This document shows, one piece after another, positions 8,031 through 51,000 of a stretch of 64,000 nucleotides of DNA. The notes below the pieces were generated by a model. The model was not told where the DNA came from, made no database searches, and saw nothing but the letters and a program-made list of their open reading frames with translations. Every line of letters starts with the position of its first letter. Position 1 is the stretch's first letter. Made by a program: the position numbers and the translations under genes. This DNA comes from Raillietiella orientalis (taxonomy: Eukaryota): positions 2,542,001 through 2,606,000 of the forward strand of contig JAYWIR010000027.1 in NCBI GenBank assembly GCA_036172245.1, read 5' to 3'.

Positions 8031-8552
8031 CAAGGGCGCGCGCAGCAGCCCGGAGGCGGAGGGCCTCAGTCTCAGGCAGCGAATCCAACGTGCTCCCGTG
8101 AAGAGGAGCGGGAGGGCCATGGAGGGCACCTGGGGGTCTTCGGGAGGTCGCCGCCTTCCTGCCCCGCATGGCTCACTAGTCGGACCTCCCTCCAGCCTCT
8201 CCGTCAGCGCGTGAGGGAGGGCATGCGGCCTCGCTGGAACCCACATACTCGGCTGCACTCGACCCGTCCAGCTGGACGCACCGCCCGAGGTGCCGTGTTG
8301 GGCTTCCTGACGGACCATGCCGGTCCCACGATTGCACAACTGGTAAGGGGAGCGGGGCAGGGGCGGAATGCCGTTCTTCGGCGCGGAAACAAAGGCAGAA
8401 GGTGGGAAGCCACACGCGGGGCCAACCGGTACGCCACTCAGGGCGACGAGGAAGATGTTTGACTGTCTGAAGCGGGGGAAGCCAAGTGGCCGCGGACTCC
8501 ACATTGGCCATCGGGAGGCTGCCATCACCGCGTTAGTCACCGCGTGGGAGGT

Positions 8553-11410: not shown

Positions 11411-12479
11411 ATTGATTTTCGATTTACAAAATCGATGTTTTAGATGAACTAATAGGCTAATAACTAAGGGATTAGCTAGATAGGAAATAGCATGAAGAAC
11501 AGGTTGGATTTATTTACTGCGATCGCAAAGTCATCCATGGCAACTGGCAACTTCTTCTGGAGCCGGACTGTTCGAGATTCTGTAGGAATTCTGAATGAAG
11601 TTTCGAAAGCTGTCCACGAGGCGAAAGAGGTCGTGCTGCCCCTCAGCGATTCGCTCGGGAGCTCTCGTGATTATGCCGTTGTGCGGTTGCGGCAGAAAAC
11701 GCCCCGCCGACTTCCATGCACCTACAGTCAGCATCACCCCGAAAGAACGGGAGTTGAGGATGTGCAAACGGTTTCGGAACGTGATCGGAGGTGAGCCGAT
11801 CGGCATCCAAGAGCGACTTTTCAACAGGTATCGCATAAAGGCTCCACCCAAAGGTTACGGTTCCCCTCTTTCGCGAAGGAGGACGAAGTAGGGCACTTCG
11901 TGGTGTTTCGAAGTCCCTCGAGATTTGACAGGTTTGGCGCTTTGTGGACCCGCGTCTCTGTTGCCGCAACTTCTGGAAAGCCTTGCTTTGCATCTTCTCG
12001 TATGAGATGCAGAACCCTGCGATCCTGGTGGCGACCCAATTCACAGAACAACGAGCGACGATTCGCACTCCGAAAAAAAAGCTCCGAGATGAGCGGTCGG
12101 TCGCTAACTAGACAGCAATGGCGGACGAAACGACGAATTGCCAAACTTGTGCTGGTCACAGAAACCGAAACAGGAGATGCAACCACATGTTTGTCTTCGG
12201 CACGAGAAGGGATCAGTCGGTGTTGGTTTTTTTCTCTAGAGACAGCAACAAAGACGTCACATGCACCGCTGGACCGAAGCAAGAGGACAACGCGGGGTCT
12301 CCTCCTGACTGACGTTCGCTCTCACATGCATTCTCAGACCATAGTAGGTATCCAACACACAGCAGGTTGTGTATTTCCTACGCCCACAATGTCCTGCGAG
12401 GGAGCTTTTTTTTTTAAAAAAAAGACCAGTAGCGACCCTCACGAGCAGATCGTTACATTGGCCTAGGGATGATGGAAAT

Positions 12480-13215
12480 TCTTTTGGGTTCTTCTCTGTC
12501 TTCTCTGTTTTTTCCCTGCAGCTTTTTTTTTTTTTCGGGTTTTATTTTTTTTGGTTCGCTAAGTACCTCGCAGCGCGCACTTGGCTCTTTAACACCACGC
12601 CGCCAGCGGAGGGTGCGATTCTTCAAGATAGGGGGGCACCCTGGAAGGGGAGAGTCCGCCCTATGAATCCAGGAAGGGCTCGGAGTCCGTTTCTCTCACG
12701 CTTGGGGAGGGATCCACCCAGGAGGGGGGGGAATCACACCTCCCACCCTGGGTTGTCTCCGAAGGGGAACCCCGAAGCGAATCTCCTTTCTCATTCTCTC
12801 CGGAGGGACCTTCTCTGGAGTGGGATCCTCTCCATGTCATCTCCGAAGGGAACCCGGAAAGGATCCGCTTGTAGGAATTTCTTCTCCGGAGGGAACCCTC
12901 AAGGGAACCGCTCCTGTGCACTCCTCTGAAGAGAACCTCGAAGGGACGCTTCCGAAATTCAGAAGGGACTCTGCAGCTTCCCGCAGGGGATCGCTCTCGC
13001 TTGCTTCCTTGCACTCTCCTGGAGAGGCAGCAACTCGGAAGGTTCCCTCCGCAACAGTGGGGAATTCGCTCCTTTAAACAACTGGGGAGGTGCCTGTGAA
13101 GGCTCCTGCTCCGTCTTAAACAAACCAGAGGGTTTCCCCGGTGTGGAGGGTCCGCTCTCCGTTGTACGAACAGAGGGGAACTCCCCACTCCTTGATTCCT
13201 GGAAGGACCCGAAGG
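12480..13215 (-). mobile_element. Second dispersed repeat family (copy F1), probable retroelement remnant with A-rich end
   Basis: Shares TCTTCAAG..GCACCCTGG..CTATGAATCCAGGAAGG..CTCTCACG with 62660-62740, and CTCCTCTGAAGAGAAC and TTGATTCCTGGAA with 63595-63815; minus-strand frames end FLDS* in both copies. Confidence 0.55.
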
Positions 13216-15701
13216 TCGACTCCCATTGTTCCGGCCTTCATCGGTGGTTTACGGCTTAATCCACCGCCGGTGCCACGCCCGAATGATTAGACCAACCAGC
13301 GCCGTTGCAGGAGGAAATCGGAACCCAACGACGCAATGGCGTCAGTTTCTGCCGGAGTATTCGAACCCTCGTCGCATGGTGCCACGCGCGGAAGCCTTAA
13401 TTACAAAGGCATTACGCTTGGAATTTTTGTTTCTCCACGACATACCATAGTTCCACTCACAGATATGTTGCGATTTTTTTTTTTTTTTTCTAGTAAACTC
13501 ATTTTCCACACGCTCCGCACTACTTTTCATCTCCATCTCTGCCACTTCTTCGAACAAGAATCCTGCGTGAGTGCAAGTGAGTTTCAACCATAAATTGATC
13601 TATATGGTTGTGATCCCCCTACCCACATCTAGGCATCGTCATGTAGAGCCTCATTCACATTTCCTGCTGCTATTGGATTACTTTGTACTCTTGTCCATCT
13701 TTATTAGTTCTATCTCTATTTTGATTTGCTGTGCAATTCTTGTTTTTTCCACGTTTAAATCTGAAATAGTTTTGCATTCTTTGTGTGTGTGTGTGTGTCA
13801 CTTGAACTAAGGTAATTTTTTTCATTCGTGTTGCTCATCTTCCTTTATGGAAGTCCTCTCGTCAACAAAGTTTTGCATGATTTAAGAACCTAATATTTAA
13901 TGGCTGCATTCTTACATGTAGCCATTTCCCTTGATTTCCAAATATTCGAAATTTCCAATCATAATGACAAAACGAATATCTTGAATAGTATTGTGTTCCA
14001 GAAAGCAAATTCCTTGTTTGATTTATGGCCTCAGCAACCGGAAAGTCAGTCAGGTGTAGCTTTTTTTTTTGTTCTTTTCAAGTGTCGATATTTATTGAAG
14101 TTCTCATCACTACGCGCCTGTTCATTCGTGCAGATACACTTTTCATAAATAACTCTGTTGACAACAAAAGTCCTCTTTTCAAATTTATGAGATGATTCGC
14201 AAAGTAATGCGTATTGTCTTCTGCTGGTTGCTCCTGAAGGATAAGTTTAAAGTCAAAAATTTCCAGGAACTTTCTTTTTCAATGTGAGCACTGCTGCATT
14301 TCACTACTTTTGCATCTATCAAATTCTTTATAAAGCCAACATAAATAGGTATAAACTACGGTTCTTCGGATCAATTCGCTGTCTTGACACCCCTTCTTAA
14401 TTTGTAATTGGATGTGTGTTTTTTTTTCATTTTTTCACTAGAAGCATAAGTCATAGTGCTTTTGTGACAACTGAAATGCTAAATATAATAGCAAATATAA
14501 AAAGGGTCTGTGCTGCCATTTTAATAGACGGATTTTAAATTATGGGACTTGCTGTGCCGAACGAGAGCTCATACTTTCTCTATCCTTTCTTATAAAAGGG
14601 AGCTGATTTGTATTTTGTTGTGCGAAGGCTCTTCGCTTCTGAAATCGTTGGTTATTCGTTATACTCTATTTCATTCAAGTTCGATTTAAACTTTTTCCCT
14701 ATACTTGCTTATTTCCTTTTTGCTTTTCATTTTTGTCCTACTTTTTTGTATTTGATTCCTTTTTATGCGAACTGTTTTTTTAACTCGAACATGTGCCGTG
14801 TATCTCAATTGGAAGGCACTTTGAGAAACTTTGAGTACCTGCATTGAACGGATTAAGAAATTCCGACAAACATGCATTAAATGAAAGAGTATTACACCGT
14901 GATTTAGGTATAATACTCTTTCATTTAATGCATGTTTCAGTAACATAAAATCGTGAAATGAAAAACATGGGTCCAGGCAATCGAACCAGATTGTTTAGCC
15001 AAAGGAAACGATTCGAATCGTAGAAGAATTAGGCTTGTTCACGAATGCATTTGTGAATCAGCAATTAAGAGGGAAGTTGAAGCAAGGAAAATTCCTTTTA
15101 TGAACACGTGGGAGTGTGAACATATCGGCAGTAAACTATGCAGTTAAATGGTGAACAGAGTCCGTTTGCGTTGCTTTCCGGAATTCACAAAGCAAAGGCA
15201 CTTTGGCTTTTTAAGGGAAGATGAGCGCCCAAACGCAGACCGAGGTACACCTACTTTTTTCAACCGTGGTAATCCTTACGCTCAGTAGCGTAGCAATGCT
15301 GCAAGTGCCTTGAGACTATGTGGAATTTGTTACCTTCTCAATCATTATGATTATTCCTTGGGTGCAGTCGTTAATGGATTGAATCAGGTGGTTCCTCAGT
15401 GAGTGTTATTGTGCCGAGATTTAAAACCATTTTGAGGTGATGGAAAACCAGGAGCCGTAATCGTATCTTCGTCATGATACGTTGTAGCAGGATACTCAAA
15501 GTAAGGCTGCTGATTGCAAATCTAAACTTTTGTTACAAAGTGAACCAGATGTACTTCACTGAAGTACATCAACTTTAAGTATACGCAACACATTATGTTA
15601 TAAGCATGGATTTTGGAAATCGTAGCAACCGTTGGCAGGAGCAACAGTCGGTTTGCCAAGCAACGATGCGTTTGTTTCGAAAATCTAAATTAAAAAACAG
15701 A

Positions 15702-21691: not shown

Positions 21692-24600
21692 TCAGATGTG
21701 CACATTGTGGATGCTGGACGAATGCTCGGGATGGAAAGAAGAATTCTTCTGGCGGTTGGTCCTCGAGTAATCGGAGAACCTGTCGATGTCCTGCGGGATG
21801 AGCATGACGGGTTGCAGGTTCATCGACTTCCGGGATCCACCGATGGAGTACGCATCTCCAAGGTAACCGCCGTTGAACTCCCCTGGAAAGTTTCGACTTG
21901 ATTCTCATCGCGGGGAGCGGAGGGATCGCTTGCTTGACGCCGATCCCCTACCCCACCCACCCTTGCACGCGGCCGCAGCACTGCCGCTGGCTCCAGCCGC
22001 TTGCACCCTCCATAGGAACCGCTCGCCCCCGCGGGCGTCTCGGGTGGGGACGGATCGGGGGGCACGATAGGAAGCCGCCCTTTGCACTGCCACACCCTTC
22101 ACGCCCAGCAGCTGCGACACCGGCCGCCTCGAGAGGCGGAGCGGTCTGCGCAAGGAGGGAGGAGGCGCGCGCAGCCCTACCGAACCATCCCTTCCGGGGA
22201 TGGGCTCCCGGGGGAACGGGAGGGGGCGAAGCGGCTGCTGCCATGACGACGAGGGAGAGGGGGATGGCGCACAAGACGAGGCGTCCCCGCACGATCTGGG
22301 TGGAGCTAATGCGTTACGGGGAAGATCAGGAGGGAAGGGAGGGGTGAGGAGAAGGCTGGAAGGGTGGGGTCTGGGGGCAGACCACGGAGAACGGTCCCTC
22401 TTCCCCGCGCCCTGCTCACCTTTGTAGACAGAGGCGTTGGCGGCGTATCCCGGCTCTGCCTGGAGGACGACGTAGCGCGTGCCGAGGATCAACGCCAGGG
22501 CGCCCAGGACGAGGCCGTCGAAGACGGAGACGGCAGCAAGGATGAAGGCCCATTGAACCCTGCACTGGCCAGGGCGGTAGGCTCTGCTGTCGCCGCAGAC
22601 GTCCCCCACGGCAGGATGCTCCCAGCCGGAGGGGTAGGCCACCACGCCAGCCGCCATGCAGAGGGCTGAAATGCGGGAACACCCGGAAGACGTGAGTACC
22701 AGTGAGAGCTGGGCTCGCGCGCGCGCGCTCGCAGCCCACGACGACGAGCGCCGGGCGTTCGAGAACGACAAGCCGGTCCGAGGCGGAACCTCGGGGAAGA
22801 TGAGGGGTAGGGGGTGCCGAGATGAGAGGGAAAGAAGCGGCGGCAGTGACCCCCTACAGGCATCCAGCGCGCACGAGAGAGCCGCCTCTGGGAGACGCCG
22901 CCTCACAGGGGGGCGCGATGACGATGTTGTCGTGACAGCGAGGACGACGAACGAAGCACGCGCAGCTTCCCTTCAGTGCCCTTCACCCCCACCCACAAAA
23001 CCCTAAAGCCGCAAGGAGGAGCTGGCAGGCGAGTGTCCGCTCTCGCGGAGACCGGGGTCGCACTGGGGAAACGCCTGCAGGCGCAGCATGTCGCACCCGG
23101 AGAGGGCAGGCGCACCCCGCATTCCAGACCCCCCCCCTCTCGCTCCGTCGCCACCTACCACCTGGTGCAGCAAACAGCAACACCTTCGCACGCGAACGAC
23201 CGTGCGCGTGTTCAAGCGGAGGGGCACCCAGGTCGAGCGTTGAGCTGTCACCCCGCATTCCCGCGCGCACGCCCAGCTCGCCCGTGGGCCGCCTCGGTCC
23301 TCGCGCGACCTCCTTGACCGCAGGCAACTACGTGCGGACCCTGTCCACTCGCAAGAGTTCTCGCCTTGGCCCGCCTCCAGGCGCGTGTCCGGCTTTGCGG
23401 CGCAGTTTTGTTGACGGAGGCGTATTCGCGGTGTTTTGCTTCGGGAAGTCTCTCATCCAGGACGCGTTCTCTCTCAAGCGACGGCGAACTGCAGGGGGCC
23501 CGTTCCCCGCACCGTGCAGCTCCCAGTATCCCTTCGCCCCTCCTCAGAATGCACGGCTCAAGCAGAGGAACAGTGCCGCAGCTGCGCCACGCGCGACGGT
23601 CGTTCCGGTTAGGTGCGAGAGCCCGAAAGGCCGCCGCAGGGAAGAGGAGAAAACCAGGCAGAAAGAAAGGGATGGGCAAACAGGAAGTCGGAGTGGGGGG
23701 GGGGGGGGTGACGCAGCGCGCGCGCAGCGCAAGGCTTCATGGGAGGCAGGGAGAGCAAATCACACAACAGAAGCGTCGCCACCCCGGCTGCCCCCACTAA
23801 AAACTGCAAAGCATCACCGGCGGAGCGGCGGCGCAGCGAGGGAGAAGGGAGGGAGGGAGGCGCATTCCACCGAACGAAGCTGCGCCCATCCGCGAACATC
23901 GCGCGCAGGCGAGAGCACGCGGACGCGGGAGGACAGCGCCGCCGCGAGCCGCTCCGTCAACAGTGCACCGCGGACGCCATTTTGATTACCAGCGAGCGAG
24001 GCAAACGAAAAAGGCTGCACAGGGAGCAGTGGGTCCACGGGCTGGGATGTGGCGATCTGCTATGCCGCCCAAAGGGAAAGAGCTGCCGCGCGCGTACGTT
24101 TCGCAGTCCCCCTTCCCATCTTCCTATCGCCTCTCGCTCGCCCGTCCAAAGGCACAAGAAGCGCAGGATGCCGGAACCCTGCGCGGTGGTGGGAAAAGAG
24201 CAGTCGCACCGTGCAGGAGGGACGAGGAGCACATTGACTACGGGCGAGGGCACGAACGCACGGGGCGGCGAGCCACGCCGCCCGCTTCTCGGAGAGGCAT
24301 CGCGGACCAGGGCGCATTCCACAGGCGTTTCCCCTGCGGATACGGGCGAGCCTCTGCTCCTGCGAGAGCCGCTGTTGGGAAAGGAAAGGGTCGGCCACAC
24401 AGGCTCGTGGTTCTTCGCGGCGTGCCGACGTCGCCACCCATACGCCGCGTTTTGCCACCGTCTCCGCACAGACGCCACGCCTTTACAGATGCTCGCGTGG
24501 TCCAGCAGGCAGGCCGTTCGCAAAAGGAAGCAATTTTCGGGAAGCGAAAGTGGCGGCAGACACGCGAAACTCGAAGGTGCGGAACGGGCCGCCGCCGCGG

Positions 24601-25486
24601 CAGGGGGAGGGGGAACCCCATCCGCGTCCTCCTCCGTCTACGCGCAGGAAGAAAGCGAAAGGAGGCGACGCCAGCATGATAAAACATCAGAGAAGGCTAC
24701 GATTAAACATTTCAGAGAAAGAAAACACGTTTGCATGCATGTCCTCGTCAACAACGCGCCAGAATCGCCATTTTGAATATTTACGCAGGGTGGGAAGAAG
24801 AAGAAGAGGAAAAAGGGTTGCTAACTATGCGCTGGAAGAATGCAGAGGGTCTGTTGTCGGTGCCGCCGCCGGGAGGGTCACACGTCACGGCGGCAGCAAC
24901 ACCCGACACGCCTACCCATCGTGACTTTGGGTTAACTCTCCCTGCCGAGGCTGTTCGGTTACCGAGGTTTCGGCGTGAGGTCCTGGGGCCACGCATGCAC
25001 TCATGGGGGGGGGGATGCACAAAGGAAAAAAAACTCCATCCCAAGGAGTCCAAGGAAACCACGAGACTGATTACCTGACAAAATCTGAAGCCATCCGCAT
25101 ATGTGAAACACCGTAGGTGACTGGAGGAAAAGGAAAAGCATCATGCAAACAACGCTAAGCGATGCAACGATAGCGGAAAGACCGACGAGGACGGTGCAGC
25201 ACTGGAAGATCGTCGAGAGGATGGAGGAGAAATCGTCGATGCTTCCGAAACACTGCACTTGCTGTTCGCTTGGGCGGAAGACGCAGTATTTGTACAGTCC
25301 GAAATGACCACTTCCTTGGGCATCGCTGCTGTCGGCAATCCAGTGTGGCTGCACAAACACTATGGCACAGATAACAGCCAAGCAAATTGAGAAAATCGCC
25401 CATAGCACGGCTACGGCTCGGGCATTGCGGACATAATTGATCAGATGCACTTGGGAACTATCCGTATATTCGACTTTTGAACCCAT
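21692..25486 (-). CDS. Tmhs: LHFPL3/4/5-type tetraspan membrane protein (Tmhs orthologue); exons 25486-25075, 22665-22420, 21882-21692
   Basis: MGSKVEYTDS..NYVRNARAVAVLWAIFSIC..GHFGLYKYC..VFHICGWLQILSALCM..YPSGW..VCG..GQCRVQWAFILA..GSRKSMNLQPVML; all junctions GT-AG and in phase; closely parallels Drosophila Tmhs. Confidence 0.93.
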
Positions 25487-25990
25487 AAGGGACACCAACG
25501 AGTCGCATCTAATCGATCATTTGCTCATTTCGAAGGGACGCACAAACTCCGCGATCGCACCAACAGCACGCAGCGCGCGGGCGAGAGTCGACGCCAACAG
25601 CAGCAGCGGCGGCGGCAGGTCACCGTAGCTGACAAAAACTTACGCGAATAGCCATTCACCGAAGGAAAAAAAAAAAAAAAAAAAAAAAAGGGAGATGATC
25701 GTGTCACGTGATACTCCTGCATGGCACACTTTTTGCCCAGAGGACGCTCGGCGTCGCACAGGCGCCTCGGAGCACCTGGAGGATGCCTGGTTCCTCAACG
25801 AGCGTCTCTCCTTCGGGATGCTTGGGTGCACAACCCATGAATGCACGGACGTACGGGCCGTGCAAACACGGGAGTCAAAACCCCCGTACGTACACAAGCT
25901 GTGCCTCTTAAGACGGGCGGACCCGCTGACGGGGCAGAAATTTGAAAAAGCCCGAGGATGGCATGACGGCATTCCAGAGCCGGGCGATTG

Positions 25991-29100: not shown

Positions 29101-29203
29101 GTGTGACAAGGGATACCGAATAGAATGTGTTCTGGAGATTAAGCTGATGGTTGCACGCAGGAATACTTCCTGCGTGAACGCAGTTAGGGATGGAATTTGT
29201 TAG

Positions 29204-30909
29204 TTGCCACCCGGTCACGCCGGGGCGTTTATTACAAATTCTCTATGATTCGTGGTACGAGGCCCCACTACGGCCAACTCAGCTGGACCTGCCGGGTCGC
29301 CGGTACGCAGACCGGCGCGACTCTCCTCGGCAGCGGAAGGGGGTGGGGGAAAAAACAAAAAGAAAAATAAAACATAAAAACAAAAAGATTTGGGAGGGTT
29401 GGGGAGGGATCACTGACCACTGGGAGGAGGGTCCATCCTTCGCAGGATGCCCTCGAGGTCCGTCCGTATAATTCCCAGTTGGGGCCATCTGGTCACAATC
29501 CGCAGGTAGCGGACTGCAAGTACGACGGCATCCCTGTCGTGGCTCGGTCTTCTGACGTTGCTCCAGCACGTCACAATCCCGCGTACGCAGCAAAGTGCAG
29601 CCAGGGCAGCGGCTGGACGCAGGGCATCCTGCACGAACAGAAGCCGAAAAACGTCTCCGGGCTGGCTGCCCTCCTGGATCCGTAGGGAGGCACGAAGACG
29701 TTCCCACAGGGGTCGGAGGGCAGCACAATCAACAAGGAGGTGGGGGAGGGTTTCCCGTTCCCCACACCTGATGCAGGTAGGATCTACTTGACCCCTGGTC
29801 CAGTAGTGGCGGCGTGCGTTGCAGGGTAGACCCCAATGCAACAACAGAAGCGCTGACTCCTGCCACTTCAGGGGGAGGATCCTAGAACCAATTAATACCG
29901 AAGGCCACTTCAGATCATCCGGCTGGACGCCGAGTAGCTCGCCCCATCTCTGAAGTCCTCTCGGCTGGACACTAGGGGTAGTGGCGTTTGCCAGTTCCCC
30001 CGTGAACCAGCCGCTTATCAAGTTCTCCTTGCCTGCGATGCGGCAGGAGACTTGCTACCTAGGCTTGCAGCTGCTGGAGAGCGCCCTCCTCAGAAAGAGC
30101 ATCGCCGTAGCTAGGGGGGTTGTCTCTGCCCACGTGCTTCTCGCGGGACACTGGAGTATCTTCCGCAGAGTGCAACGGGAATAGGCGCCGTGTCGCAGGC
30201 AGTTCCACATCTCTCCGTTGTTCTGGTTTATCTTCGCCCACGTGCCAGCTGTCTCCTCCAGCCATGCGGAGGAGTTGGCGGGGCTGCATACCATCCAGCC
30301 GTTTTCCTTAGCCAGAGTTGCCATGCGTCCCAGGAGAAGTCCGCATCTCTTGATCTTCCTGCCACGGCACAGAAGATAAGACGCGAGACCCTCCGTCCCG
30401 GATACACGGCTGGCAAGGATTCGGGCCGGAACGCACCAAGGGGTGCTCCATAACTTCGCTGCGATGGCGAGGGTTCGCCACCGCAGCTGAATCTCTACTC
30501 GCTCCATCGTCAAGAGGCCGAGACCGCCATCCCGACGTGGAGCACACATGTCCTTCAACGGGACTCGGGGCCTCCCTCTTCCCTAAAGGGCAATTCTCAG
30601 GAGGTCCTTCGTCCGTTTCTTCAACTCTCTGGGGACGGGGCAAACAAAAAGCAGGGGGCGGAGGATAGGAGCCGCGAACGCGTTCCACACTGCGGCCCGT
30701 TCCGGAAGGAGAAACTTGTCTTCCAGGAACGGGCCGATCGCCGTTTCCACTTTTTGGAGGCAGCCGGACCACGCTTCCGCAGTGGAGTAGTCCCCCAACG
30801 GCACACCAAGGTACTTCAAGCACCTCGCCGTGGGGATCCCCAAGCGGACCCAGTCCCGCTGCCCAGCCTACGCCGCACCGACTGGAACCACCGTCGACTT
30901 AGCCCTGTT
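29204..30909 (-). mobile_element. Copy C: 5'-truncated L1/Tx1-clade non-LTR retrotransposon (end of RT, thumb, CCHC zinc finger) with target-site duplication
   Basis: INRAKS, CLKYLGVPLG, PRRDGGLGL and CIRCGERETLPHLLVDC motifs; two in-frame TAG stops and a frameshift; flanked by GATGGAATTTGTTAG at 29189-29203 and 30910-30924 (the first 3 nt may be 5' microhomology). Confidence 0.93.
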
Positions 30910-31166
30910 GATGGAATTTGTTAGCAAAACTCGGTAGAACCCGAATCGACGAAAACGCTCCTGGCTATTGCGAATACTTGTATTAATTTTAACGTGCAAA
31001 CTTCGATCTATTCGTATTACTTACAAAACCATAATGAAACTAATGGGTTGATAAAACATTTTTTATTATATTAAAAAAACAATTTGGGAAAATTGGAATG
31101 TATCACAACGATACATTTGTAGTTTGAACTGATACATGCAATGCAGATCATTCTAAAAATTTCAAT

Positions 31167-34100
31167 TTAAATCCTTACATATTTATAAAGATAGTATCTT
31201 GCTAATTGATAAGAACCGGCAGTCTGGTATATTAGGGAGATGCTATAAGCAATTTCTTTTGTCAAATCAAACATTTCGGGGCCTTCTTCTGGATCAGTGA
31301 AAGGGGGATATGTGAGAGCTTTTTTGTAGTAAAACAGTGCCAAGTGCAGCATGTCTGGAAAAACAATGAATGCCACTAAATTAGTAATGAAACCTTACTA
31401 ATTTGATGCATAGCTCTGCCAAGATTGAAGTAGGTTTCTTGGCATTCACCTCTCAATTTCAGATAGTGTTGGAAAAAAGACATGGCCTGAAGCAGAAAAT
31501 GAATACAGCACACCTTATTTGCTCACCTGACTGCAAAAGCTGTTTCGTGAATCCACAAATTTTTGGGATAAAATATGGATCAGTACGATGCCAACCATCA
31601 AACTTAGGAAAGCATCCGATGAATTCTGCTTGTAGGCAGCAATGTAATCAGCCAAGGCATACTTGTAGGAACCATTGACAAGGCAAGAGTTTGCATTCAA
31701 GATAGCCAGGCCTAAATTATTTAAGTTGCCTCTTTGCATTCTTAACAAGAAACGCTGATACTTAGAATCTTCAGTAAATGAAATGATCTGATTTAGAAGA
31801 TTAAGAACTTGGCCAACAGGATGCTTGGCTACATGGTGCCTCAACAAATGAAAGGCACTGGAAAAGTCCTTATTGTACATAGCACTAACAACAGCCATAA
31901 TTTCCAATCTCTACAAAACCGGATTTGGCATACAAAACAATCAAACTAGCAACTTACACTTGATACACCACCTTTACGAGCCTCTTTAAAAAAAAACTTG
32001 GATCCTAATGCAGAGAAACAAGCTCTCTGTAATTCAGGGAAACGTTGCTGCTCCATTAATATCTGACACAAAAGCAAATGTAGCTCCCAGTCTTCTTCCA
32101 AAGAAACATTTGCTACAAATTCATGTTCATTGGCATCAACAGAACTACTTTCAAAATCATTCTCATAGGAACGCCTATTCAGATGGAGGACCTCTTTAAA
32201 CAAATGTCAGCAGCAGCAATCAACAAAAACTTGCTTTCTATGTCAGTGTAGTTGTGAATACGTAAGCAATGCCGGCTGAGGATAAGCTGAGCAGTTTGGA
32301 TGAAATCCTCTATGTGTCCTTCAACCCAAAGCAGACGGCAACGATGGTGCAGCACAGCCATATCCAATGGTTGTTCTGAATCTTCTACAACAAAGTTGCT
32401 GGAATGCAGTTTCTTGCTGACCTACTGCCAAGATTTGCAGAGCTTCATCCATTCTTCCCAACTCTTGAAGTAAAGCACAAAGGGACAAACGGGCACTTGA
32501 ATGATGAGGGGCCATTTGTACCACCATGTGATATGCCCTAGCTGCTTGCTCTTTGTCTCCTGTTGCTTGTAAACATTCAGCCAGTCTCAACCAAACAGCT
32601 GGCTGGATTCACTTAATGTGATGTATAAGATGACCATACCCACCAGATTGTAGCTACGTGAGTTCACCAGCTCTTGCAGCCAGGGAATGGCTTGAAGGTG
32701 AAGTTCTTTCGCCATCAGAGTTTCTGCCAGATCTAGGTATAGATCCCCAGCTTCATCTGGTTTGGAAAGTCGCAATGCTTCCAACACAGGCTACAGGAAC
32801 CCACAGAACAGCAAATAACATAACAAGCAGGGTTTATTCACCTCTATCAGAGCAACCCCACCCAAGTAAATCAGGCAAATACCCAATTTCACTTTGAGAT
32901 CAATAGGTAATCTGTCTGGAACTTGACAAGATGTAGCTTCATGAAAACTCTCGATCTTATGATCAGGAGACAATGTGAATGTATCAGGCCAAGTAAACTG
33001 AACTTTGCAATAGTCTCGTAAAAGCTCTATGCTTTTTATATATGAACGATTAGCAATCATCAGTTCTAAAGTTAAATTGATTTCTAAAAAAAAAACAAAA
33101 ACAAATGAATTCTCAGAAAAGGACAAAAATGTCGCAAATTCACCTTCAAATGACAGATGGTCTGGGTGGTCATCTATGACCTGATACATAGCTTCCACTG
33201 CTTTATCCAGATTTCCCATTTCATGATGCAGTTTTGCAAGAGTCTTGGCAATTGTGAAAGCCAATTGGACATTGTCTTTGGCCAAGTCTAGGATCACATG
33301 TAATAAATGCAAGGAATTGCTTTTTGCCTACATTTATAAGCACGAGTGTAGGTAAGAATGCAACGCCTCTTATAGCCCATCTGCTCTAACATTTCACAAA
33401 GCTCAAAATACAAGGGAGCATTGTGGGGATCAGCAGCTACAGCTACAACAACCCATGCAGCTGACTGAAACATTAGCTACAATACCTCGACTGTAACACA
33501 AGAGTCCATGTCTCTTGTCTCCTTTTTGCATAAGAAGTTTGCCTAACCGAATCCATTCTTTTGAATCAGTATGGCCAAGATGAGCAGCAATCAGCTGAAA
33601 TTGAAATCCTTTTTCAGTTTGTCCTAATTCCTCATAAATCATGGCCAGAGTATGGTAAGGTTCAGCAGCAAATGGCACTGAACAAATCCATAATATTCCC
33701 AATACAAAAACAGTTTTCTGATTACCTTCTTTGATAATCTCTTTGCACATTTCCAATGCACTGTCTGCATCACCACGAGCAAATGTCAAATTAGCCTCTC
33801 CCATGAGACCCTGATGAAAAATGCACATTCACACATGTACATGATCATGTAGCATTCACTTACCATCAAAGCAGGTGGCAACTTAGTACGAGAACGCTTA
33901 CTGGATGTTGAAGGTTTCTCTACTTTATTTGTCACCTGACTGGGAGAGACACAATCATCATCTACAAAACAGTGTCAGTCTTGTTTGCACCCTCCCCAGT
34001 TTTATTATTGTTAATTGAGAAAATGGTATAACTTGTTTTATCCGAATCCTGGAACAGGTCTACTAATCCCACGAACTCTGCATCTTCTTCTGTGAAATCA

Positions 34101-40813: not shown

Positions 40814-43602
40814 CTACAAACCCAGCAGTAGAACATGTGGATCTTCAACAACTGACTTGATTTTTCTAAGGAAGGTAACTGCTTCCCTTCCATCAATTAG
40901 ACGATGATCATAGGTCAGGGCCACATACATCATGGGCCGAATAACAACAGCACCATTTCTAGCTACGGGTCTATCAACAATAGAATGCATGCCCAAGATT
41001 GCAGACTGAGGAGGATTAATGATGGGTGTTCCAAACAAGGAACCGAAGACACCTCCATTGCTAATTGTAAAAGTACCACCATCCATATCTTCTACAGCTA
41101 AGCTGCCTTGTCGAGCCTTCTCTCCTAATTCAGCTAATTCACATTCAATGGCTGCAAAACTACGGGACTCTACATTGCGTAGAACTGGCACTACCAGCCC
41201 CTTCCAAAAGATACATGAGGGGATGCACACAGGTTACTTACTTTTGGTGTGGCCACAGCCACAGAAATATCCACATAGTCACGATAAACGATATCCACCC
41301 CATCAATGACTGCATTTACCACTGGCTGGTCTTTTAGTGCCCAAGCAGAAGCCTTGGTAAAAATTGACATGAAACCCAATTTCACACCATGCTTTTTCAC
41401 AAATGCTTCAGCATGGGTACGGCGCAGATCCATGAAAGCACTAACCACAGCAAAGAGATCAGTGAGATCACCTTTATAAACAGATCTACCTCATATCAAT
41501 CTCATTGAAAGTTGTCAGCATAGCACATGTATTCTGTGCATCTTTGAGCCTCTGAGCAATTCTCTGTCGCATTCGATTCATCTTAACCCTCTGTTCTGTG
41601 CGAGTTCCTATGGCCAGATGATTGTCAGGACGACATCCCACAGAATTCGCTCACCTATGATTTCTTTGGAATAATCTTTAGGAGGCTGTTTACTTTCTGC
41701 AGGCATGTAAGGTTGAGGAGTCAGTTCTGACAATGGGATACTTTGAAGTGGAGGAGGACGGACTACCTGGGCAGAAGGTGGAGGGATAACCTCTGGAAAA
41801 TACAGCAATAAAATGCATCTTATCATATCTCACCTGACTGAGCTTCTTCATGGAAAGCAACTGTTACTTCTGGAGAGGGGGCAGTAACAGGTTCCTGAGC
41901 TAGTGGTGTAGAAACATGAGAAGTTCCAGTGACTTGTGGGGAAGCTTCCTTTGAGGGTAGTGGTGGTGATGGTGATGGTTGGGAAGGTGGTGGTGATGGT
42001 GATGGATGGGGAGGTGGTGGTGGTGGTGGTGGTTCAGAAGCAGTGGCTTGTGGTTCTGATGTAATTGATGTTCCTTCTGAAAAATATGCAGCCTGTGAAC
42101 TTAATCCCCAAGGCTACCTGTCACCCTCAACTTGAATAGTGGAGTGCCTGAGGTCACAGTGCTACCATCTTCCACCAATAAGGTTTCTATGATACCTGAT
42201 GCTGGGGCAGGAATAGAAATGGCAGTCTGGAATATGAAAAATAGAATCAACAATCACCATGTTATACCCACTTTATCAGTCTCAATCTGCGCAACCACTT
42301 CATCTTCCTTCACCACATCCCCAGCAGCTAATAACAGTATATGTCTCTATTGGATCTGCACCTTTACTCACCCTTCTCCCATCTCACATCTCCTTCACTA
42401 ACAGATTCTGCAAATGGAGGCACCACAACTGTCCTGATGTCATTTCCTACAAGCCAGCTTGTTGTCAGCGGAAAGACCTGTATAATTCTTACCTAAGGCA
42501 AGGGAGGTATGCAGCCAAGACTTTTGCACCAAAGGCCACCAATCTTGTACCCTACTGAGGATAACACAAGGTTAACAAGAAGTGATACAGTGAAAGAGCA
42601 ATTGTACAAGATCAAAGTCAACAGCAATCTGCCAGTGGCCTGACCTATTAGCTGCTCCCTTCCATCACACAGAATTGGGATTTTACTAGCAAGTCAAACA
42701 AACTCACAATGTATGGTGGAGACTCTGGTAGGCATACTGCAACACCACTGGTGAATTGCTGTGGGAACCTGAAATGGAAAACATCCAACCATTGCAAGCA
42801 GCAAGGAAGCTGCACTGGCATTTGATGACAGCTTATAATGGAGCATGGCAAAAGTGTTTTGCCTCGCTGTATAATGCAGATATGCAAAGAAGCTCCTCTT
42901 AGCTGATTTTACACAAAGACCAGAGTTGAGCAAGTTATGCCTTGAGCAAGTTATGCCTTGAGCAAGTTATCAGCAAGCATGCAATACTAGCCAATCATGT
43001 GATAGGGCAGTCAACAAAATGGCTCATTTGGCTCTCAAGCATGATAAACCAATAAAATTACAGCAATTAAGCATTTGTGGGTGCTTTGTGCCATAACTTG
43101 ATTCATGAGAAAACTCATCAACAGTTTTACTTTTCTGTTTACTCTAAAAATTGCACAATAGCAAAGTTGCTTTTCTTCCAGGATTAAAACTGGTACGCCA
43201 TTAATGTACTTAATTGTACTTCTCGTATTGGGTGCTTTGGGAAGTGCTTACGTTTTTTGCTACAGCTGCAGCTGCTTTGGCTTCTACAAGTCTGAAAGAG
43301 AGACCACAATGAGTTGACTTCCTTTCGGAATGTTTTTCAATATTCCTTATCACGAAAATGAGGAAAAATTAAACTTGTCGAATATTTTTGCGTACGGAGG
43401 GTTGCAACTGAATGCAAATTGCAGTTTATTATTTCCAACGTTCAAGGCCGGAATTCCTGAATGGAATGCAAAATGAAAATGGTTGACTACCACTTACTTC
43501 TAGCTGGCTTGTCAAATGAAGGCAACGTGCTCTCCGTGAGCTGTAACTGGCAAATAATTTGGACGAATGCCTGCTCCCAAAAGACAACAATTTCGCGTAC
43601 AT
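40814..43602 (-). CDS. DLST: Dihydrolipoyllysine-residue succinyltransferase (E2 of 2-oxoglutarate dehydrogenase), mitochondrial; multi-exon
   Basis: Presequence [17 protein letters not shown], lipoyl domain [23 protein letters not shown], Pro-rich linker, catalytic domain [32 protein letters not shown] and [15 protein letters not shown]. Confidence 0.97.
42926..42970. repeat. 16-bp tandem repeat (TTGAGCAAGTTATGCC) x ~2.8 in a DLST intron
   Basis: Directly visible exact copies. Confidence 0.9.
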
Positions 43603-46600
43603 CTCAAAGCATTCTCAACAACACGACCACACGGTGAGAAATAAATAATTTTATCACCTCATGCATGCACTGAACATTTCCTGGTTCGGAATTCGTCGAC
43701 TGCTTCATCAAACAAATACATGTAGGAAAAAAAAAAAAGGGGGAAGGGGCAAATTCACGGCCAACGGAACTGCATCTGCAACTGCTGTCGACTCGAGTGA
43801 AATATCTTGGCTATATCAGGTTTTCTAATTATTTTTAGTTTTACGGTTAACAGATAATTATGATGATTTTCTAACGGATGAGACTTCCGCAAAGATTTAC
43901 GTGGTTGTCAGTGAAACCACGAGGAAAACAAACGTTGACACGAAACCTTAGTATTGTTACTGATATCGTCTTTGTTATAAAAACTTCTTAGGTTTCGAAA
44001 TCATTGTAAAATAATAAGAAGAATCAGATCTAAAGGTATGCTTTTTGCTGGTATCGAGTATTCAGTGCTTCAGTTGTGCAGGAAGAAAGCTTCAAGGAGA
44101 TTAATTTAAAAAAAGATTTTCAAGCAACTAAATTTCCCAAGGATTTCCCAAAGAATTTTTTTTTTGTTTTTTAGCTTTCTGTACTTCCAAAGGTAATCAG
44201 CAAGCCCAGTGAGTTCGATGTTCGTGAATGAGTTGCTGCTGCAACAACTTCAAACCTGAAGAAATCATCCAGCAGTCGATCCTGCATCATCCATTACCCT
44301 TTGGACATTGAGCTTGAAGATGCCACGAGGAAAGCTTTGATTTTGTGGAATCCTAGACTGAAAAGAATGCCCGAGGAGGCATTCGGATCTTCAGGAAATT
44401 AACCAACAAGTTATAAGAGTCGAGGACCATTTTCTGTGCCAGCAACGGGGAAAAACTCCCATTCTACTTCTGCCAGAAGAGTTAGGCAGTTTCCATCTTG
44501 TGTTTTAGGCATCGGTTATCAAGAAGAATTAGCATTAGTTTTCGTTTGGCAGGAACTCATCAGTCCAAGTAATTTCTGATGGATTCTGGGATCTAAAAAA
44601 GGAAAACAAAGGAAAAATATATATCCATAACTGCAAAAATAAAGAGACGAGCTATTAGTAGATATCGTTATCATTCACAATTTCGATAGCAGGTGCCTCG
44701 TATCGCAGACTGAGACGCAAATGTAATTTTGTGCACATTCGTCTAAAAAAAAAGATTGGAAAAATCTCTCCCAAAAATTATTGTTTGAATGAATGGAATG
44801 CACAGAAAGAAAAGATGCAAAAACAAACAAACAAACGAAAATCCTGCACCCAACGGGTAGCTAAGCGAAGCCGCCGTCTTTGCTTCTATGTGAGAAATGC
44901 ATCAGCAACAGGAAGCCAGCATATGTGTAAAAAGGAAATCCAAGGGCGGGATACTGCCTCCTCTTGTTGAGACGCAAAAAATTCTCTCATTAAAGGTATC
45001 GTAACGGCCACTGTCCAGTAGTTGTATGAATTCCGTACGAACTCCATAAGACAACTGGATGCGCGCCTGTTTTAATTCAGAATCCATGATTCCTGAAGGA
45101 GCGAAGACAAAGCCACGAAGCCACAAATGGAAGTATACGATTGGCTTGATTGTAATCTCAAGGAATCTCAAAGCAGTTACCAAAGAATAAAAATTCCATC
45201 CCTTTATTTGCTTATCAAATCAGCTGTTGAATGTGCATTTATTGCTAGGCATATGGAATGTTAATCGAATACAAAAGAATAATCATGAAATAGGATTTCT
45301 AGGGATAAAGCATGCCAGTGTAAGCTACCCAAAAAACAGATGTCTTGAGATTACACCTTACGGAAATGAATAGGACAGAGATGAAGGCGAACATTTTTCA
45401 TAATTTCGGGCATTATTCGTGAGAGGAAACAACTGTTCTCGATAGGAATGTCGAAGGAGGCACACAATCCTTTCTTTGAGTCACCAAACAAAGAGTTTTG
45501 CATTCTTCAGGCTGGAAAACGCCCAGAAATTCGATTTTCGCCCAACATTTTCTTCTGAGGGACTCCTCCCTCTCCCCATTCAGATTTCGTATCGATCATT
45601 CCTTCCCATCAGAAGGCAATCGTCGGCCCGATCTGCCGTGACCTTAGGATTTCACGTAGAAAAGAGATCAGAAGGAAGGTCCACGGAAGAGGGAGTCCCA
45701 TTTTACGATCTGTCTCTGGATCCTCTGGGTAAGGAACTGGCCTCTGGAAAGGCAACACCTTCGACCTGAGAGGGGGACAGACCATCTCTGGGCTCGTACT
45801 CGCCTTTTCGGACTGCTGCTCACGCCCTAGTGGCCAGAGTTCAAGCCCCTTTCTTCGTTCCCCCTCCCCCACTGACCTCCCTACGGATGGACGCTCGGCT
45901 GTATTTCCAGTCTTCGTGTTCCTTCCGCGTCCTCCTTCCTCCTGCGTGCCTGGGCGGCCATCCCCTAACGGGATAGCGAAAAGTGTCGGTGGGCCCCTGT
46001 CTGTTGTTCCATCTTCTACTCCTTCTTCCAGAGCTCCCGGGAGCCCGTCTGGGCGTCTCTACGAGGTTCGCTCCCCACTACCCCGCGGTAGCGGATGGAA
46101 GTTTGCCCCGGGCACTTCGAGAACGGAACGGCCACCTCGCACCCTTTGGCTTGGCAGCTTCCGACAGCGCGAGTTGGCAGCTGAGCGGCTCTGTGGGAAG
46201 GAGGTTGGAAGGAGGAGGAGGAGGCGCTGACGCATTTGCACCCGAGCCAAGTGTAGGCGGCGCTCCCGAGGATTCTCCAAGAGGGACAGATCGCGGGCGC
46301 GCCCTTGATGAGGTGAGGTCTGCATAAGCAGTGGTATCTCCACCGAGCAGGGAAGGGACAGGAAGAACGTCTTATAAAGGGCGCCGTAGGTGGAGGCACT
46401 ACAAGTCCGCAGGAGCCGGTTGAGGGCGGAACCGCCACCCAGAAGGGCAGGGAGAGGGGGGGGGGCGACCTCCATTCACCTACCCCGCCCTTCCCCTTCA
46501 CGCGCGTTCCTTCCCGAGACGTCGAGGAAAAAACAGAGAAAGGAGGGTTGGGTGAAGAGATGGGGTCGAACGGGGTCAGGGGATGGCCAGTCCGTCTTTA

Positions 46601-46679
46601 CGTGGACCCAGCCACGGATGCGCAAAGGACGCTGCCCGAGAGGGAGGGGGAGATCTTGCAGGACGTAATTCCCCCGAAA

Positions 46680-46860
46680 GGTAAGAAGGAGAATCGTGGT
46701 CAAAGTCGGGAACTCCTGAGACTTGCCGGTCTGGGACCACATGCCCTACAGGCCCGCTGCAGTCAGCGTCTCCGTGCACCTTCGCAAGTCCGTCCCTAAG
46801 GGCATTTCTGCCTCCGTAATGTGCCATCTGGACCCTCATAGGTGCGAAACCGGACATGGC
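46680..46860 (+). mobile_element. Possible decayed non-LTR ORF1 remnant
   Basis: RRRIVVKVGNS*DLPVWDHM..VSVHLRKSVPK..CHLDPHRCETGH loosely resembles the ORF1 segment leading into a zinc knuckle. Confidence 0.2.
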
Positions 46861-48003
46861 TGCACAAGGATTGCATCACAGGTCCTTGGTTGCCGCCGTG
46901 AAGGATCCTTTTCCCCCCGGGAACACAGTCTCTATGTCGGAGGGGCGCAGGAGTCTCCGCGGGGCGGTCCGCGGGTGCGCCCGGCCTCTCGTCGGCGCCC
47001 TCGTCGTAGGCGGAACCGAGAGAGGCGTCCAGAAAAAAGACATCAGTCTCGCTTTCCCCTTTCCCCAAGTGGAGAGGGTTCTGTTCTTGACCCGATTCCT
47101 CCTAAGTGGCGCCCATCGACGTTCTTCCCGGGGCAAAGAGCCCCTCTGTCGACGGCGGGCGGCCGTGTACCACCCTGCTCTGCACCTCGCATAGCCACGG
47201 CAACGAGCTGTTCGGGGAGCGGCCTCTTCAGCCCGCTGACAACATTCTTCTCCTTTCCCCCTTCGTCTACAGGGACGATGCCATTCCGCCTTCCCGACTG
47301 GCTACGCGCGCGACTCCTCCCTCCTGCCCCTGTGGAATGGGGGGAAGGGACTCACTCTTGCCTTAGGAAGCACACGGTTCCTCCCCTCCCCTCTCCTTCT
47401 GCCCCCTCTGCTTCCATCTGGAGGGAAAGGAAGAAGGAAGGGCTGAGCTTTGTCCCAGGACACTTTTCTGTAGTGCAGAGAGCCGGAGGTGGCCGCTGTA
47501 TGCTTTCCCATCTACTCCCCCTCTCCTCTCCTTCCCCTCCTCCTTTATTGCTGCTTCTTCTGCCTCCTGTGGCGGCCCCGACGGAGGGGGGCCCCGTGAG
47601 GATACCCGCAAGAAGTGGGTGCTGCTGCTGCTGTCCCAACTAGGTCGTCCGTCCCTGCCACCACCTGGTCCAGCGGCGTCCGTTCCGGCTCAGCCTCCCG
47701 CCCTCAGTGTGGGCGGCAGCAGGACGACGGCGGCGGCGGCGGCGGCGACGGGAGGCGCTGCTGCTCGCACACGTGGCGTTCCTGAGGGAACGAAGAGTTC
47801 GAGCAGGTTTCCCGAAGGTGGACGCGAGGATGGCAGGTGCCGCCACTTTCGGGGGGCCCTCGTCGAGCTAGCCAGCTCCACCACCCCCTTGCGCGGGTTG
47901 CGGCCAAAGACCCCAACGCTCTCCTGTGAGCTCTCCTGCCTCTCCCGGGTCGCATGACCTCGAAGGAGGGGCCACATCTGCTACTCCTCCCCCCCTGCTT
48001 TCT

Positions 48004-51000
48004 CTAGTGCCGCCCTGGATCCTTCCGCGCCGCTGCTGCCCCCCTGACGGCTCTTCCAAGTGAGGAAGTCCGCAGGTAGGGTGAGGAGAGTCCTTCCCCG
48101 CTTCCTTTCTCACCTCGCCCTGCCCCTCCTGCCTTCGCCTTACCTCCTCCTCCTGCAGACGCACCTCCCCCGAGCACCCCCTGAGGCAGCAAGCGCCCGA
48201 GGTCCAGCACCTGCTGCGCGCTGCTGCTGTACCAAGAGGGCAGGAAGATCGCGAGGCAGGACAGGTGGAGGGCACTGCCTGGGAACGGCCAGCGGGACAG
48301 CCGGGTGCGCAGCCCAAGGGTCCAGAGTCTACGCCCTCCAGGGCACCTCTTCGCGGCGTAGTGGATAACGTCGCGGCTGACGACCTGTCGGAAGAGGAGG
48401 AGATGCAGAGGAGCTCCTTGAGAAAGGGGAGGCAGGATGTTCCGATCCGCTCCTTCGAAGGGTGGCTGAAGAGGAGTAGGAGGAGGAAGAGAAAAAAAAG
48501 GAACGGGGAGGAAGAGGTGGTGGTGGCGGAAGAGGAAGTGAGGATGAAGGCAAGGGCGTCGAGTAGAAAGAAAATGCGGGTGCTTCGGGCACCGCCCGCG
48601 AGAGGCGGAAGAGGTAAGAATTTCGCTGGTAGAGCGGAGATCGAGTCGACAGGAAGGAAGGCTTGCCCTTAGGTGGTTGATCCGAGATCGTACTTGCTTG
48701 TCGTTGACGAACCAGGCGAGCTTAACCTCGTGGACGGTAGGCGCTGAGGAGCAGTTGGCTTCCAGCATGCTTTTGTCGACGTCCACCGAGTAGGTCAGCG
48801 TGGGTCCATCCCCGATCATATCTACGGCACGAAAATCCTCCTGAAGAGACCCGCCAAGCCCCTACGTCCCTGAAAGGTCCTTGCTTTACCGATGACGTGC
48901 ATTTCTCCCTTCGCCAGGACTGTCTGGAAAGTGGGGGCATCAGCGGAGACCTCACAGCGGTACTTCCCAGAGGACTGCAGGGTCACCTCAGTGATGACCA
49001 CCTCCGTCTCCGTGGACAGGCGCACCTGGGGGAGAGGGGAAGTTTCGGGGAGGAGGACGGAAAGAGATGTCCTTGAAGTGTCCGGAAGGGGGGACCAAAG
49101 TGGGGGAAAACTTGAGGAAACGGCTGGAAGGTAGCGCACGCAGCTAGCGAGGGGTCCCTGATAGAGTGGCCTCCCTGCCCTAGGACACTGCTCGCTTCGC
49201 CACCGGCCGACTCCTCCGTGATCCCCTCACGTGTTTCTAGTCGAAGACGCCTCCCTCCCTTCAGTGGAGTCTTTTTCTGCCTCATCCCCTGTCTCCAGCC
49301 TCCCGGAGCAGCCGCACCACCCTATGGACGGAAGCGCTCCTTCCGGGAGAGCGGGTCGATCCCTTTTCCCCCATTCTCCTGAGAACTGTCCCCCCTCCCC
49401 TTCTCGCATCTCCGGAATCCTCCCCATCGGTTCTCCTGTGGGACGAGGCGTCGGGACGCGGGGAGGGGGAGGAGGCGGATGTCCCGGGCAGGAGGCAGCT
49501 GGGCGCGTGCCGGCCCGCCCTCCTCTTTTCGCCACCCTCCTTTCTTCATCCCTGCTGATGGCTGCATCCCTCCGGACACGTCCCGCTTCGCGAAGGAAAA
49601 TCTCTGGGGGAACAATCGGCTCGTTGCGGGGCGACGGGAACGCGGATGCGCTCTCCTCGGAGAAATTATCATCTCTCGGGAAGCCGCCGCATCCGGCGCG
49701 GGAAAAAGGGAAGTGGGTGGGAAGGGGAAATTCCCGGTCCTGTCCCAAAATAGGGGAAACTCCCGCCTTCGAACGTCCCGGAGATCTCCCGACATGAACG
49801 GACGACGTTGATCGGGAATGAGAGTGAAAAAGGGAGGGGAAAGGGAGCAGGGGAGCTACAGAAAAGAGGGAGGAGTTTCCTCCCTAGCCTCTCTCTTAGA
49901 TGACTCCGGAGCGGTCACCCTGGCTCCTCCGGCTCTCTTGACGTTGCCGTAAGTCAGTCCTGTGGCTCCCGTCCTCGTCCTTTGGAACTCCTTTGTGGTT
50001 TCCTAGGTGAAGAAATTAGGTTTCCTAGGTTCGGAGAGGAGAAGGAGACCTCAGGCAGGGTCACCGAAGAGGCTCGGGTGGCAATGCGTTTGTCTGGCTC
50101 CGCCACAAGGGAAGAGAAAGGACCTCTGTGCCCTCCAGTGGGGCGAGACCCCTCTCTGTTAGCGGCTGAGCTCTCCCGGGATGGCGGCGTATCCGAGGAG
50201 TGCGATTCGATAGACAACGGGCGGAGCGCAGCCTCATCGGTGGGCCTCCGTGCATGGTCCCTAATTGCTAGGTCCGCTGTGCTTCTAGGTCCCTGGAGGG
50301 AGACCCCGGTTCCGATTCCGAGAAGCGTCGCTTTGAGACCATCCACTCTCCCCGAATCGGATCGGAAAGCCTCATCAGGGAAGCATGCAGAGGGACCTCA
50401 ACGGCATCATGCAAAGGATGGACCCTCCCAACAGCGGACTGTGATCCCTTTCCGACCCTCCAAAGTATTTCTTTTTTTTGTTTTCTTTTTATTTTTCTTT
50501 TTGTTTCTTCCCCTCATCCCCCTCCGCTGCCGAGGAGAGTCGTGCCGGTCTACGTACCGGCGACTCGTCAGGTCCCGAGATGTATTGGCCGTAGTGGAGC
50601 CTCATACCACGATTGTACAGTGTTTTTAATAAACGCCCCGGCGTGACCGTGTAGCACTCCCCGAAGCGGAAAGGGGGAGATGCCCGCCCTGTCTTGGGAT
50701 GGTCGCTCCATGAGCTCGATGTGGGCATCACCAGGTTCAGGCGACCGCGCCAAGAGGTCAGGCCGAAGAAAAGACCGACTCGCCCAGGGCTGAGAAAATA
50801 AGCGCACCCGAGCTGAAAACAAAGCGCCGATGTTCCGTGACCTTGATTGCCCGCATTGTTGAGACCGAAGAGCCTCGATGCCTGCTGGATACGCGTCTTC
50901 ATTTTGGGGGCCGAAGAACCTCGCCGCCTCTCGGAACGTTCGTAAGAGACGAAGGTCACTGCTGTGCAAAAGGGGAGGATGCGCATCCTACGTCCCCCTT

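Follow-up and report, generated by a model that had tools for sequence, protein, structure and literature searches.

A tail-less L1-superfamily retrotransposon family whose subfamilies appear to target the ORF2 genes of their siblings

The window, that is, the whole 64,000-nucleotide stretch of Raillietiella orientalis DNA analyzed here, carries three genes on its minus strand and four copies (B to E) of a retrotransposon family that ends in a GC hairpin. The features are listed below, where TSD denotes a target-site duplication and S1 is one of the subfamilies.

10619 to 11409, minus strand: copy B, an older 3' fragment of a subfamily other than S1, with a compensatory A-U pair in the terminal stem and an undefined 5' end
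21905 to 25516, with 31515 to 33828 and 40814 to 41490, all minus strand: exons of a TPR gene, a 2-oxoacid acyltransferase gene and an LHFPL-like gene
29189 to 29203, minus strand: 3' copy of the copy C TSD, 15 bp
29204 to 30909, minus strand: copy C (S1), 1,706 bp, 5'-truncated, with ORF2 residues ~717–1217 (one in-frame stop) and the 3' UTR
29204 to 29209, minus strand: terminal hexamer of copy C, TGGCAA (family pattern TGNNAA)
29210 to 29224, minus strand: terminal hairpin of copy C, 5-bp stem and 5-nt loop; the stem is nearly invariant across the family, the loop is subfamily-specific
29228 to 29233, minus strand: AATAAA of copy C
29251 to 29272, minus strand: 3' UTR hairpin H2 of copy C, of variable sequence and weaker support (69% of cells paired)
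29289 to 29333, minus strand: 3' UTR hairpin H1 of copy C, with a conserved CUGCGU-like loop and two-sided changes at 6/6 upper pairs across subfamilies
30910 to 30924, minus strand: 5' copy of the copy C TSD, 15 bp, an exact match to 29189..29203
50348 to 50361 and 50657 to 50670: TSD of copy D, 14 bp, one mismatch
50362 to 50656, plus strand: copy D, a 295-bp 3' fragment close to S1 (83%)
62761 to 63400, minus strand: copy E, a decayed 3' fragment, with an extra hairpin lacking AATAAA at 62761–62775

The hairpin motif matched five times in the window against 0.73 expected. The TPR gene is one we take to be TFIIIC-102-like, and the set of neighboring genes fits an animal host. The protein of copy C showed 92% amino-acid identity to the open, 1,217-codon S1 ORF2 at locus L114, and its 3' end reads AATAAA, CGC, stem-loop and TGGCAA, then passes directly into target DNA. 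The earlier note had described copy C as TSD-bounded, with an AATAAA-hairpin end running straight into the target, and this held, the 15-bp duplication being exact; the 14-bp duplication with one mismatch that it gave for copy D held as well. The copy C TSD is similar to the S1 target motif, in which TTNG leads up to the cut and C-Y-A-N-CAA follows, and copy C is an off-target insertion of S1. A TSD search around copy B found none. The compensatory stem change claimed for this copy is present, but covariation of the terminal stem across the family was not above shuffles (119/500), in a stem that is nearly invariant and among sequences picked by a stem-like pattern. The stub around 62756–62781 was not confirmed as a family end, the hairpin at 62761–62775 having neither AATAAA nor TGNNAA. 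A degenerate AATAAA-hairpin-TGACCA end lies ~60 nt upstream of this stub, and the true end of copy E is probably near 62815. The long GC-rich (55–65%) stretches at 1–13000 and 45600–62500 of the window hold many open frames with no Pfam match, and are probably other repeats.

Full-length copies of the element are ~5.9 kb, and lengths in the sample ranged from 63 bp to that size. ORF1 (682 codons, with a zf-CCHC knuckle) lies upstream of ORF2, which has ~1,215 residues in the order endonuclease, RT and zinc region, the zf-RVT match being weak. Pfam returned PF03372 together with PF00078 in four of five ORF2s and PF00078 in all five, and the best PDB match was human L1 ORF2p (E 4e-45). The family is thus an APE-type LINE of the L1 superfamily; at this level the claim of an L1-type retrotransposon was confirmed by the AP-endonuclease and RT domains, ORF1, 5' truncation and variable TSDs. 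Database relatives were at most 31% identical, except for one protein at 66%, and the best named ones were fish proteins. A FastTree analysis of 48 RT domains (3 of 51 were left out, and no labelled Tx1 reference was among them) gave a monophyletic family (support 1.0) on a long separate branch outside the fish group. The metagenome scan returned five loci at 24–37% identity and no close relative; inverted-repeat listings for four of these were uninformative, and ESM Atlas yielded generic endonuclease-RT-zf-RVT clusters only. The subfamilies, split by a 3'-end tree, are 57–80% identical in DNA.

The 24-mer motif of the 3' end matched 856 times in the 210-Mb genome and its reversed control not once. 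A looser pattern (stem, 5-nt loop and TGNNAA) had 1,611 genomic matches, and two subfamily groups with longer hairpins added a further 215 and 82. Six or more A's followed the hairpin and TGNNAA at only 4 of the 1,611 ends, as anticipated for a tail-less family ending at a GC hairpin. The detailed sample comprised 168 ends from extracted loci, of which 165 were usable and 3 spurious. TSDs of 12–17 bp starting at hairpin+7 were detected in 51/168 ends versus 0/495 shuffled controls, by a finder that examined this register alone and in loci mostly too short to include the 5' junction. A separate finder allowing offsets placed 24 TSDs at the hairpin+7 register or a few bases off. The predicted end at a set distance from a structured 3' hairpin was therefore found, six bases after the hairpin. 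A is conserved at +5 (163/165) and +6 (156/165), positions +3 and +4 vary freely, and the TG at +1/+2 is partly imposed by the search pattern. With A held at +5/+6 and the middle bases variable, the end is not tRNA-like, and the proposal of a constant, acceptor-stem-like GCA(A) terminus was not supported. An Rfam search of four loci gave no family match at gathering score.

The family has neither the poly(A) tail nor the T-rich priming site of mammalian-type L1. The first base of the 51 TSDs was C in 27, T in 15 and A in 9 cases; with C or T as the usual first base, the L1 mode of pairing between poly(A) and primer is not available. AATAAA was exact in 138/168 ends, at canonical spacing. One copy (L214) has A15 at the start-of-tail position, followed by an 11-bp TSD whose 5' copy carries no A's. 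The exact signals and the A15 copy together indicate that the RNA is probably adenylated there and is normally copied from about the second A. The suggestion that copying begins immediately before poly(A), or where it starts, thus gained support from this one A-run outside its TSD. Slippage of the RT could explain the A-runs, since each of the four copies that have one carries A at +4; a TSD was found for only one of the four. In the mechanism that we propose, the RNA would be cleaved and polyadenylated after UGNNA, and ORF2, seated on the structured 3' UTR, would start copying at about the second A, as measured from the hairpin. Reverse transcription would then proceed without pairing between RNA and target, as in R2 and unlike human L1. 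We lean, by a modest degree of confidence, toward this hairpin-measured start on an adenylated RNA.

The 3' UTR hairpin H1 covaries at 6/6 pairs, and none of 500 shuffles reached the covariation observed for a four-helix UTR model, in which H1 and H2 had been placed by eye before the count (which favors them), on related sequences. RNAalifold recovered the terminal hairpin alone. Eight of ten UTRs folded with z below -1.6; that of copy C did not. The S1 3' UTR taken alone folded no better than shuffles (z = -0.11; z = -0.75), and its predicted fold loses the terminal hairpin. Pairing of AAUAAA with a GUUUA further upstream is possible in 75/168 ends versus 16% of shuffled controls; the ends concerned come from many other subfamilies and not from S1 (0/38). 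This potential masking stem would suit a different origin of the end, in which structure-directed processing leaves a non-adenylated RNA ending in UGNNAA and the RT starts at the true 3' end. The A-run from +5 also speaks for it, being two bases long in 127 and three in 29 of the 165 ends and never longer in the sample. We regard this origin as unlikely, as S1 lacks the masking stem, AATAAA is exact and canonically spaced in most ends, one true A15 tail occupies the same position, and neither a constant CCA/GCA end nor, for the four loci searched, an Rfam match at gathering score was found.

In most of the 30 ends closest to copy C, the flank was one and the same sequence, an antisense RT gene stopping at DAKL(I/L). 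By hand count, ~50 of the 100 listed ends with the hairpin and TGGCAA run into this common RT target, which overturned the statement in the earlier note that the flanks differ and that no target is shared. Locus L041 holds a full-length copy (5,887 bp), antisense within the RT gene of a relative. The main feature, overlooked in the earlier note, is the sequence specificity of the subfamilies, whose principal targets are conserved coding motifs of their siblings. Seven subfamilies each have a preferred site in sibling ORF2, six antisense and one sense. The sites, with subfamily labels coined here and ORF2 motif names such as GDFN and KAFD, are the following.

S1: one codon of the sibling RT gene, ORF2 residue ~505, antisense
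S2: KAFD of sibling ORF2, antisense
S3: PPGFG linker of sibling ORF2, antisense
S4: zinc region of sibling ORF2, antisense
GAG: sibling ORF2 residue ~78, antisense
X: sibling ORF2 residue ~85, antisense, with looser specificity
GAT: GDFN motif of sibling ORF2, sense

In the S2 group, 66/82 ends start with TCGA and the KAFD codons are matched in antisense by 41/82 (hand counts). A kin match adjoins 95/164 sampled ends, 65 antisense and 30 sense (the sense set includes tandems); the ends were sampled by subfamily, and the fraction does not estimate the rate across the genome. Older or looser subfamilies have many copies outside kin. The preferences of S1 (~50 of 100 listed TGGCAA ends) and of the S2 group (41/82), both hand counts, exceed the 20% rule given in PMC4494074. 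Taken together, these flanks make sibling targeting by the subfamilies very probable.

Several further sites were noted. S2 also inserts in sense (ends L042, L194), and in these S4-type hosts it uses a near-palindromic TCGA that precedes KAFD by a few codons. A branch of S3 ending in TGTAAA (L170, L177, L167) uses another site, in sense, near the ORF1 end of an S2-type relative, and is a target switch within one subfamily. At L056:1933, the GDFN site hit by a GAT-related subfamily had GAC, as it does in GAT itself. A TGTCAA-ending group (flanks L145, L147, L143) targets a different, non-kin dispersed repeat, which has a possible ORF start ~110 nt past the site and a copy in the window at 13267–13392. 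This repeat contains a tRNA B-box-like motif. In the genome listings, copies are both clustered and dispersed. Element nests concentrate toward the ends of contigs, on small contigs and within a few blocks (e.g. C5, 2.3–2.6 Mb), and may mark heterochromatin or centromeres.

Shared flanks could also arise if a few composite insertions had been amplified by segmental duplication or assembly redundancy, with no targeting involved, and the clustering of copies in nests and on small contigs is compatible with this. Across 27 RT-site insertions of S1, mean divergence was 5.5% for the inserts and 20.5% for the hosts, a four-fold difference, and none of the 351 host pairs was less than 2% apart. Inserts 1.4–3% apart were found in hosts 4–34% apart. 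The insert-host correlation was low for the 25 core copies (Mantel r = 0.14, p = 0.17); it rose with two old outlier copies included (r = 0.48, p = 0.0005), a point in favor of amplification, as is the similarity of the two flanks of L041 to different hosts. Against it, one site is common to copies with different 5' truncation points, and the hosts come from subfamilies that are 67% identical. The divergence and correlation analyses largely refuted amplification, which we consider very improbable. They showed the insertions to be, as judged from their sequences, independent events with ordinary TSDs. At L041, one flank resembles one host subfamily and the other flank another, and the TSD is mismatched at +2, which suggests that two insertions sharing a site have recombined.

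The bases upstream of the nick are conserved (G at -1 in 10/12 for S1; G at -4 in 12/14 for S2), at off-target sites too. Such conservation on both sides of the nick, on and off target, fits reading by the endonuclease. We propose that the endonuclease of each subfamily reads ~10–12 bp around the nick, and with this reading length the conserved coding motifs of relatives would be the commonest perfect sites. Endonuclease specificity is thus the likely selector of the site. Four surface segments of the endonuclease are 18–35% identical between subfamilies versus 57% for the domain; this agrees weakly with specificity set by the endonuclease, surface loops being variable in any protein. According to PMC1950540, the Tx1L endonuclease nicks its own target almost exclusively, and a surface loop shapes its specificity. 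Targeting of kin through sequence homology (an R-loop model) was rejected: insertion into self should then be preferred, and off-target sites keep the motif.

Both the site and the junction might instead be fixed by read-through priming of the R1Bm type, in which the transcript would extend into the flanking target of its donor and pair with the nicked new target. Donors already sit in the target, copies often stand head to tail at a single site (L009, L013, L115, five S3 copies), and accurate reverse transcription by R1Bm depends on target sequence located downstream (PMC7265360). The TSD mismatches contradict this scheme, as all 12 positions are affected evenly and +1 to +3 show no enrichment (23 cases). 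Furthermore, the target variant was not predicted by insert lineage (r = 0.13, p = 0.16), conservation reaches upstream of the nick, where the RNA cannot pair, and off-target ends are as precise as on-target ones. Read-through priming is therefore improbable in our judgment, and we retain site selection by the endonuclease with a hairpin-measured start.

S1 hosts were kin in 28/36 sampled ends (S2 19, S3 6, other 3, S1 0). Kin hosted X in 5/6 ends (S1 4, S4 1), GAG in 4/4 and GAT in 3/5 (all S3), and none of these three was found in itself. Two of five S2 hosts were S2-like (86%, 89%) and one of four S4 hosts was S4-like (89%); the own site of S3 matches the S3 target over the first 10 bases. 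At their own homologous sites, S1, X, GAG and GAT depart from the motifs that they target; in S1 (ATC) and GAT (GAC vs GAT) the changes include a silent codon difference. Self-avoidance thus looks clean for S1, X, GAG and GAT and not for S2, S3 and S4, in samples that for GAG, GAT, X and S4 are small (4–7 ends).

Codon usage at the RT site was compared between interrupted and intact copies by hand count. The S1 own-site codon ATC occurred at 0/35 interrupted versus 23/100 intact sites, and GTT at 0/35 versus 21 in the first 100 of 405 intact. C-ending codons occurred at 0/35 versus 25 in the same first 100 of 405 (Fisher p = 0.0003), a test that sets the genome-wide interrupted set against the first 100 intact sites in contig order and treats sites that are non-independent. 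Off-target S1 insertions with G at +2 (L058, L065) indicate that the ATC codon is no absolute block. A block by the leucine codon CTG (0/35 vs 28/100) was also considered, and was dropped because two listed S1 flanks carry CTG. The attacks run from S1 to S2 and S3, from the S2 group to X, S3, S1 and GAT, from X to S1 and from S3 to S2, some on the basis of one to three cases. They close two cycles, S1 to S2 to X to S1 and S1 to S3 to S2 to S1.

Insertion at a conserved coding motif would destroy the ORF2 of the relative. Lineages that cut themselves would lose active copies, which would select for a mismatch at the own site and for escape codons in the hosts. That self-avoidance was selected seems to us somewhat favored by the data. 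A further-reaching possibility, which we put forward tentatively as just short of an even proposition, is a self-sustaining network of predators. Endonucleases would have evolved toward a motif in the catalytic region of rivals while sparing their own, silent codons would offer escape, and attack cycles would push the family to diversify and hold its own activity in check, all enabled by pairing-free priming from the hairpin. Relatives may alternatively be a safe haven without conflict, namely harmless multicopy landing sites, with the own-site mismatch a by-product of divergence rather than of selection. Harm avoidance is the standard account of repeat targeting in PMC8869645, one group (ending in TGTCAA) targets a non-kin repeat, and S2 and S3 show little self-avoidance. 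This reading is less easily reconciled with targets that are conserved ORF2 motifs, with own-site changes that are silent or conservative in S1 (ATC) and GAT (GAC vs GAT), and with S3 variants bearing ATC or GTT, which are common at intact sites and absent at interrupted ones. We consider it possible, though doubtful.

Taking all results into account, the findings are probably best explained by a radiation of sequence-specific AP-endonuclease LINEs that would target their siblings and start copying at a distance measured from the hairpin. The sibling-targeting network is the stronger finding, and the tail-less end alone is of moderate interest. Conflict among transposons, as known so far, mostly takes the form of site competition or of non-autonomous copies that live as parasites (PMC13269885). 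In this family the siblings are autonomous and seem to knock each other out directly, and the record of who hits whom can be read in one genome, which makes models of arms races and of self/non-self distinction testable. The family would serve as a natural system for conflict among selfish genetic elements. Its at least seven close endonucleases with different targets form a natural series for how LINE endonucleases read DNA, and its L1-type protein seems to prime without poly(A)-T pairing while leaving a precise 3' junction.

Human LINE-1, the best match of solved structure, shares the ORF2 order and the TSD length. Its poly(A) pairs with ~10 target bases (PMC3649969), whereas in our family tails are absent and TSDs mostly start with C or T. 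L1-1_CR likewise ends in poly(A), unlike the tail-less family, and stem-loops are typical of stringent LINEs, both according to PMC3747384. R2Bm, R1Bm and SART1 also show a 3' UTR-dependent start. According to PMC3649969, R2 primes without complementarity between RNA and target, to which we liken the start proposed here. These elements belong to other clades with rDNA or telomeric targets; SART1 keeps poly(A), and R1Bm uses downstream target RNA (PMC7265360). Internal, homology-free initiation is reported for a Penelope element in PMC11167929. Our literature search, conducted outside Repbase, Dfam, most subscription papers and the supplements of PMC4494074 (which may list such targets), found no LINE described as targeting sibling ORF2.

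The L1-clade LINEs Zepp and ZeppL of green algae also nest into copies of their own family. Zepp targets its own copies in one cluster per chromosome, as stated in PMC8226300, whereas the insertions described here are mostly in siblings and mostly antisense, with dispersed off-target sites besides. S1 showed no Zepp-like self-insertion (0/28 kin hosts were S1), and S2 and S4 partly self-insert. Tx1L of Xenopus is not known to carry a poly(A) tail. Together with the crocodilian Tx1-Mar, Tx1-8_Crp and Tx1-9_AMi, it represents the Tx1-clade LINEs, which are likewise animal AP-endonuclease elements with sequence-specific insertion into other transposons and tandems around the TSD (PMC4494074 and PMC1950540). 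The Tx1 targets given in PMC4494074 are DNA transposons, LTR elements, snRNA genes and microsatellites, whereas here they are ORF2 motifs of siblings, with a separate site for each subfamily.
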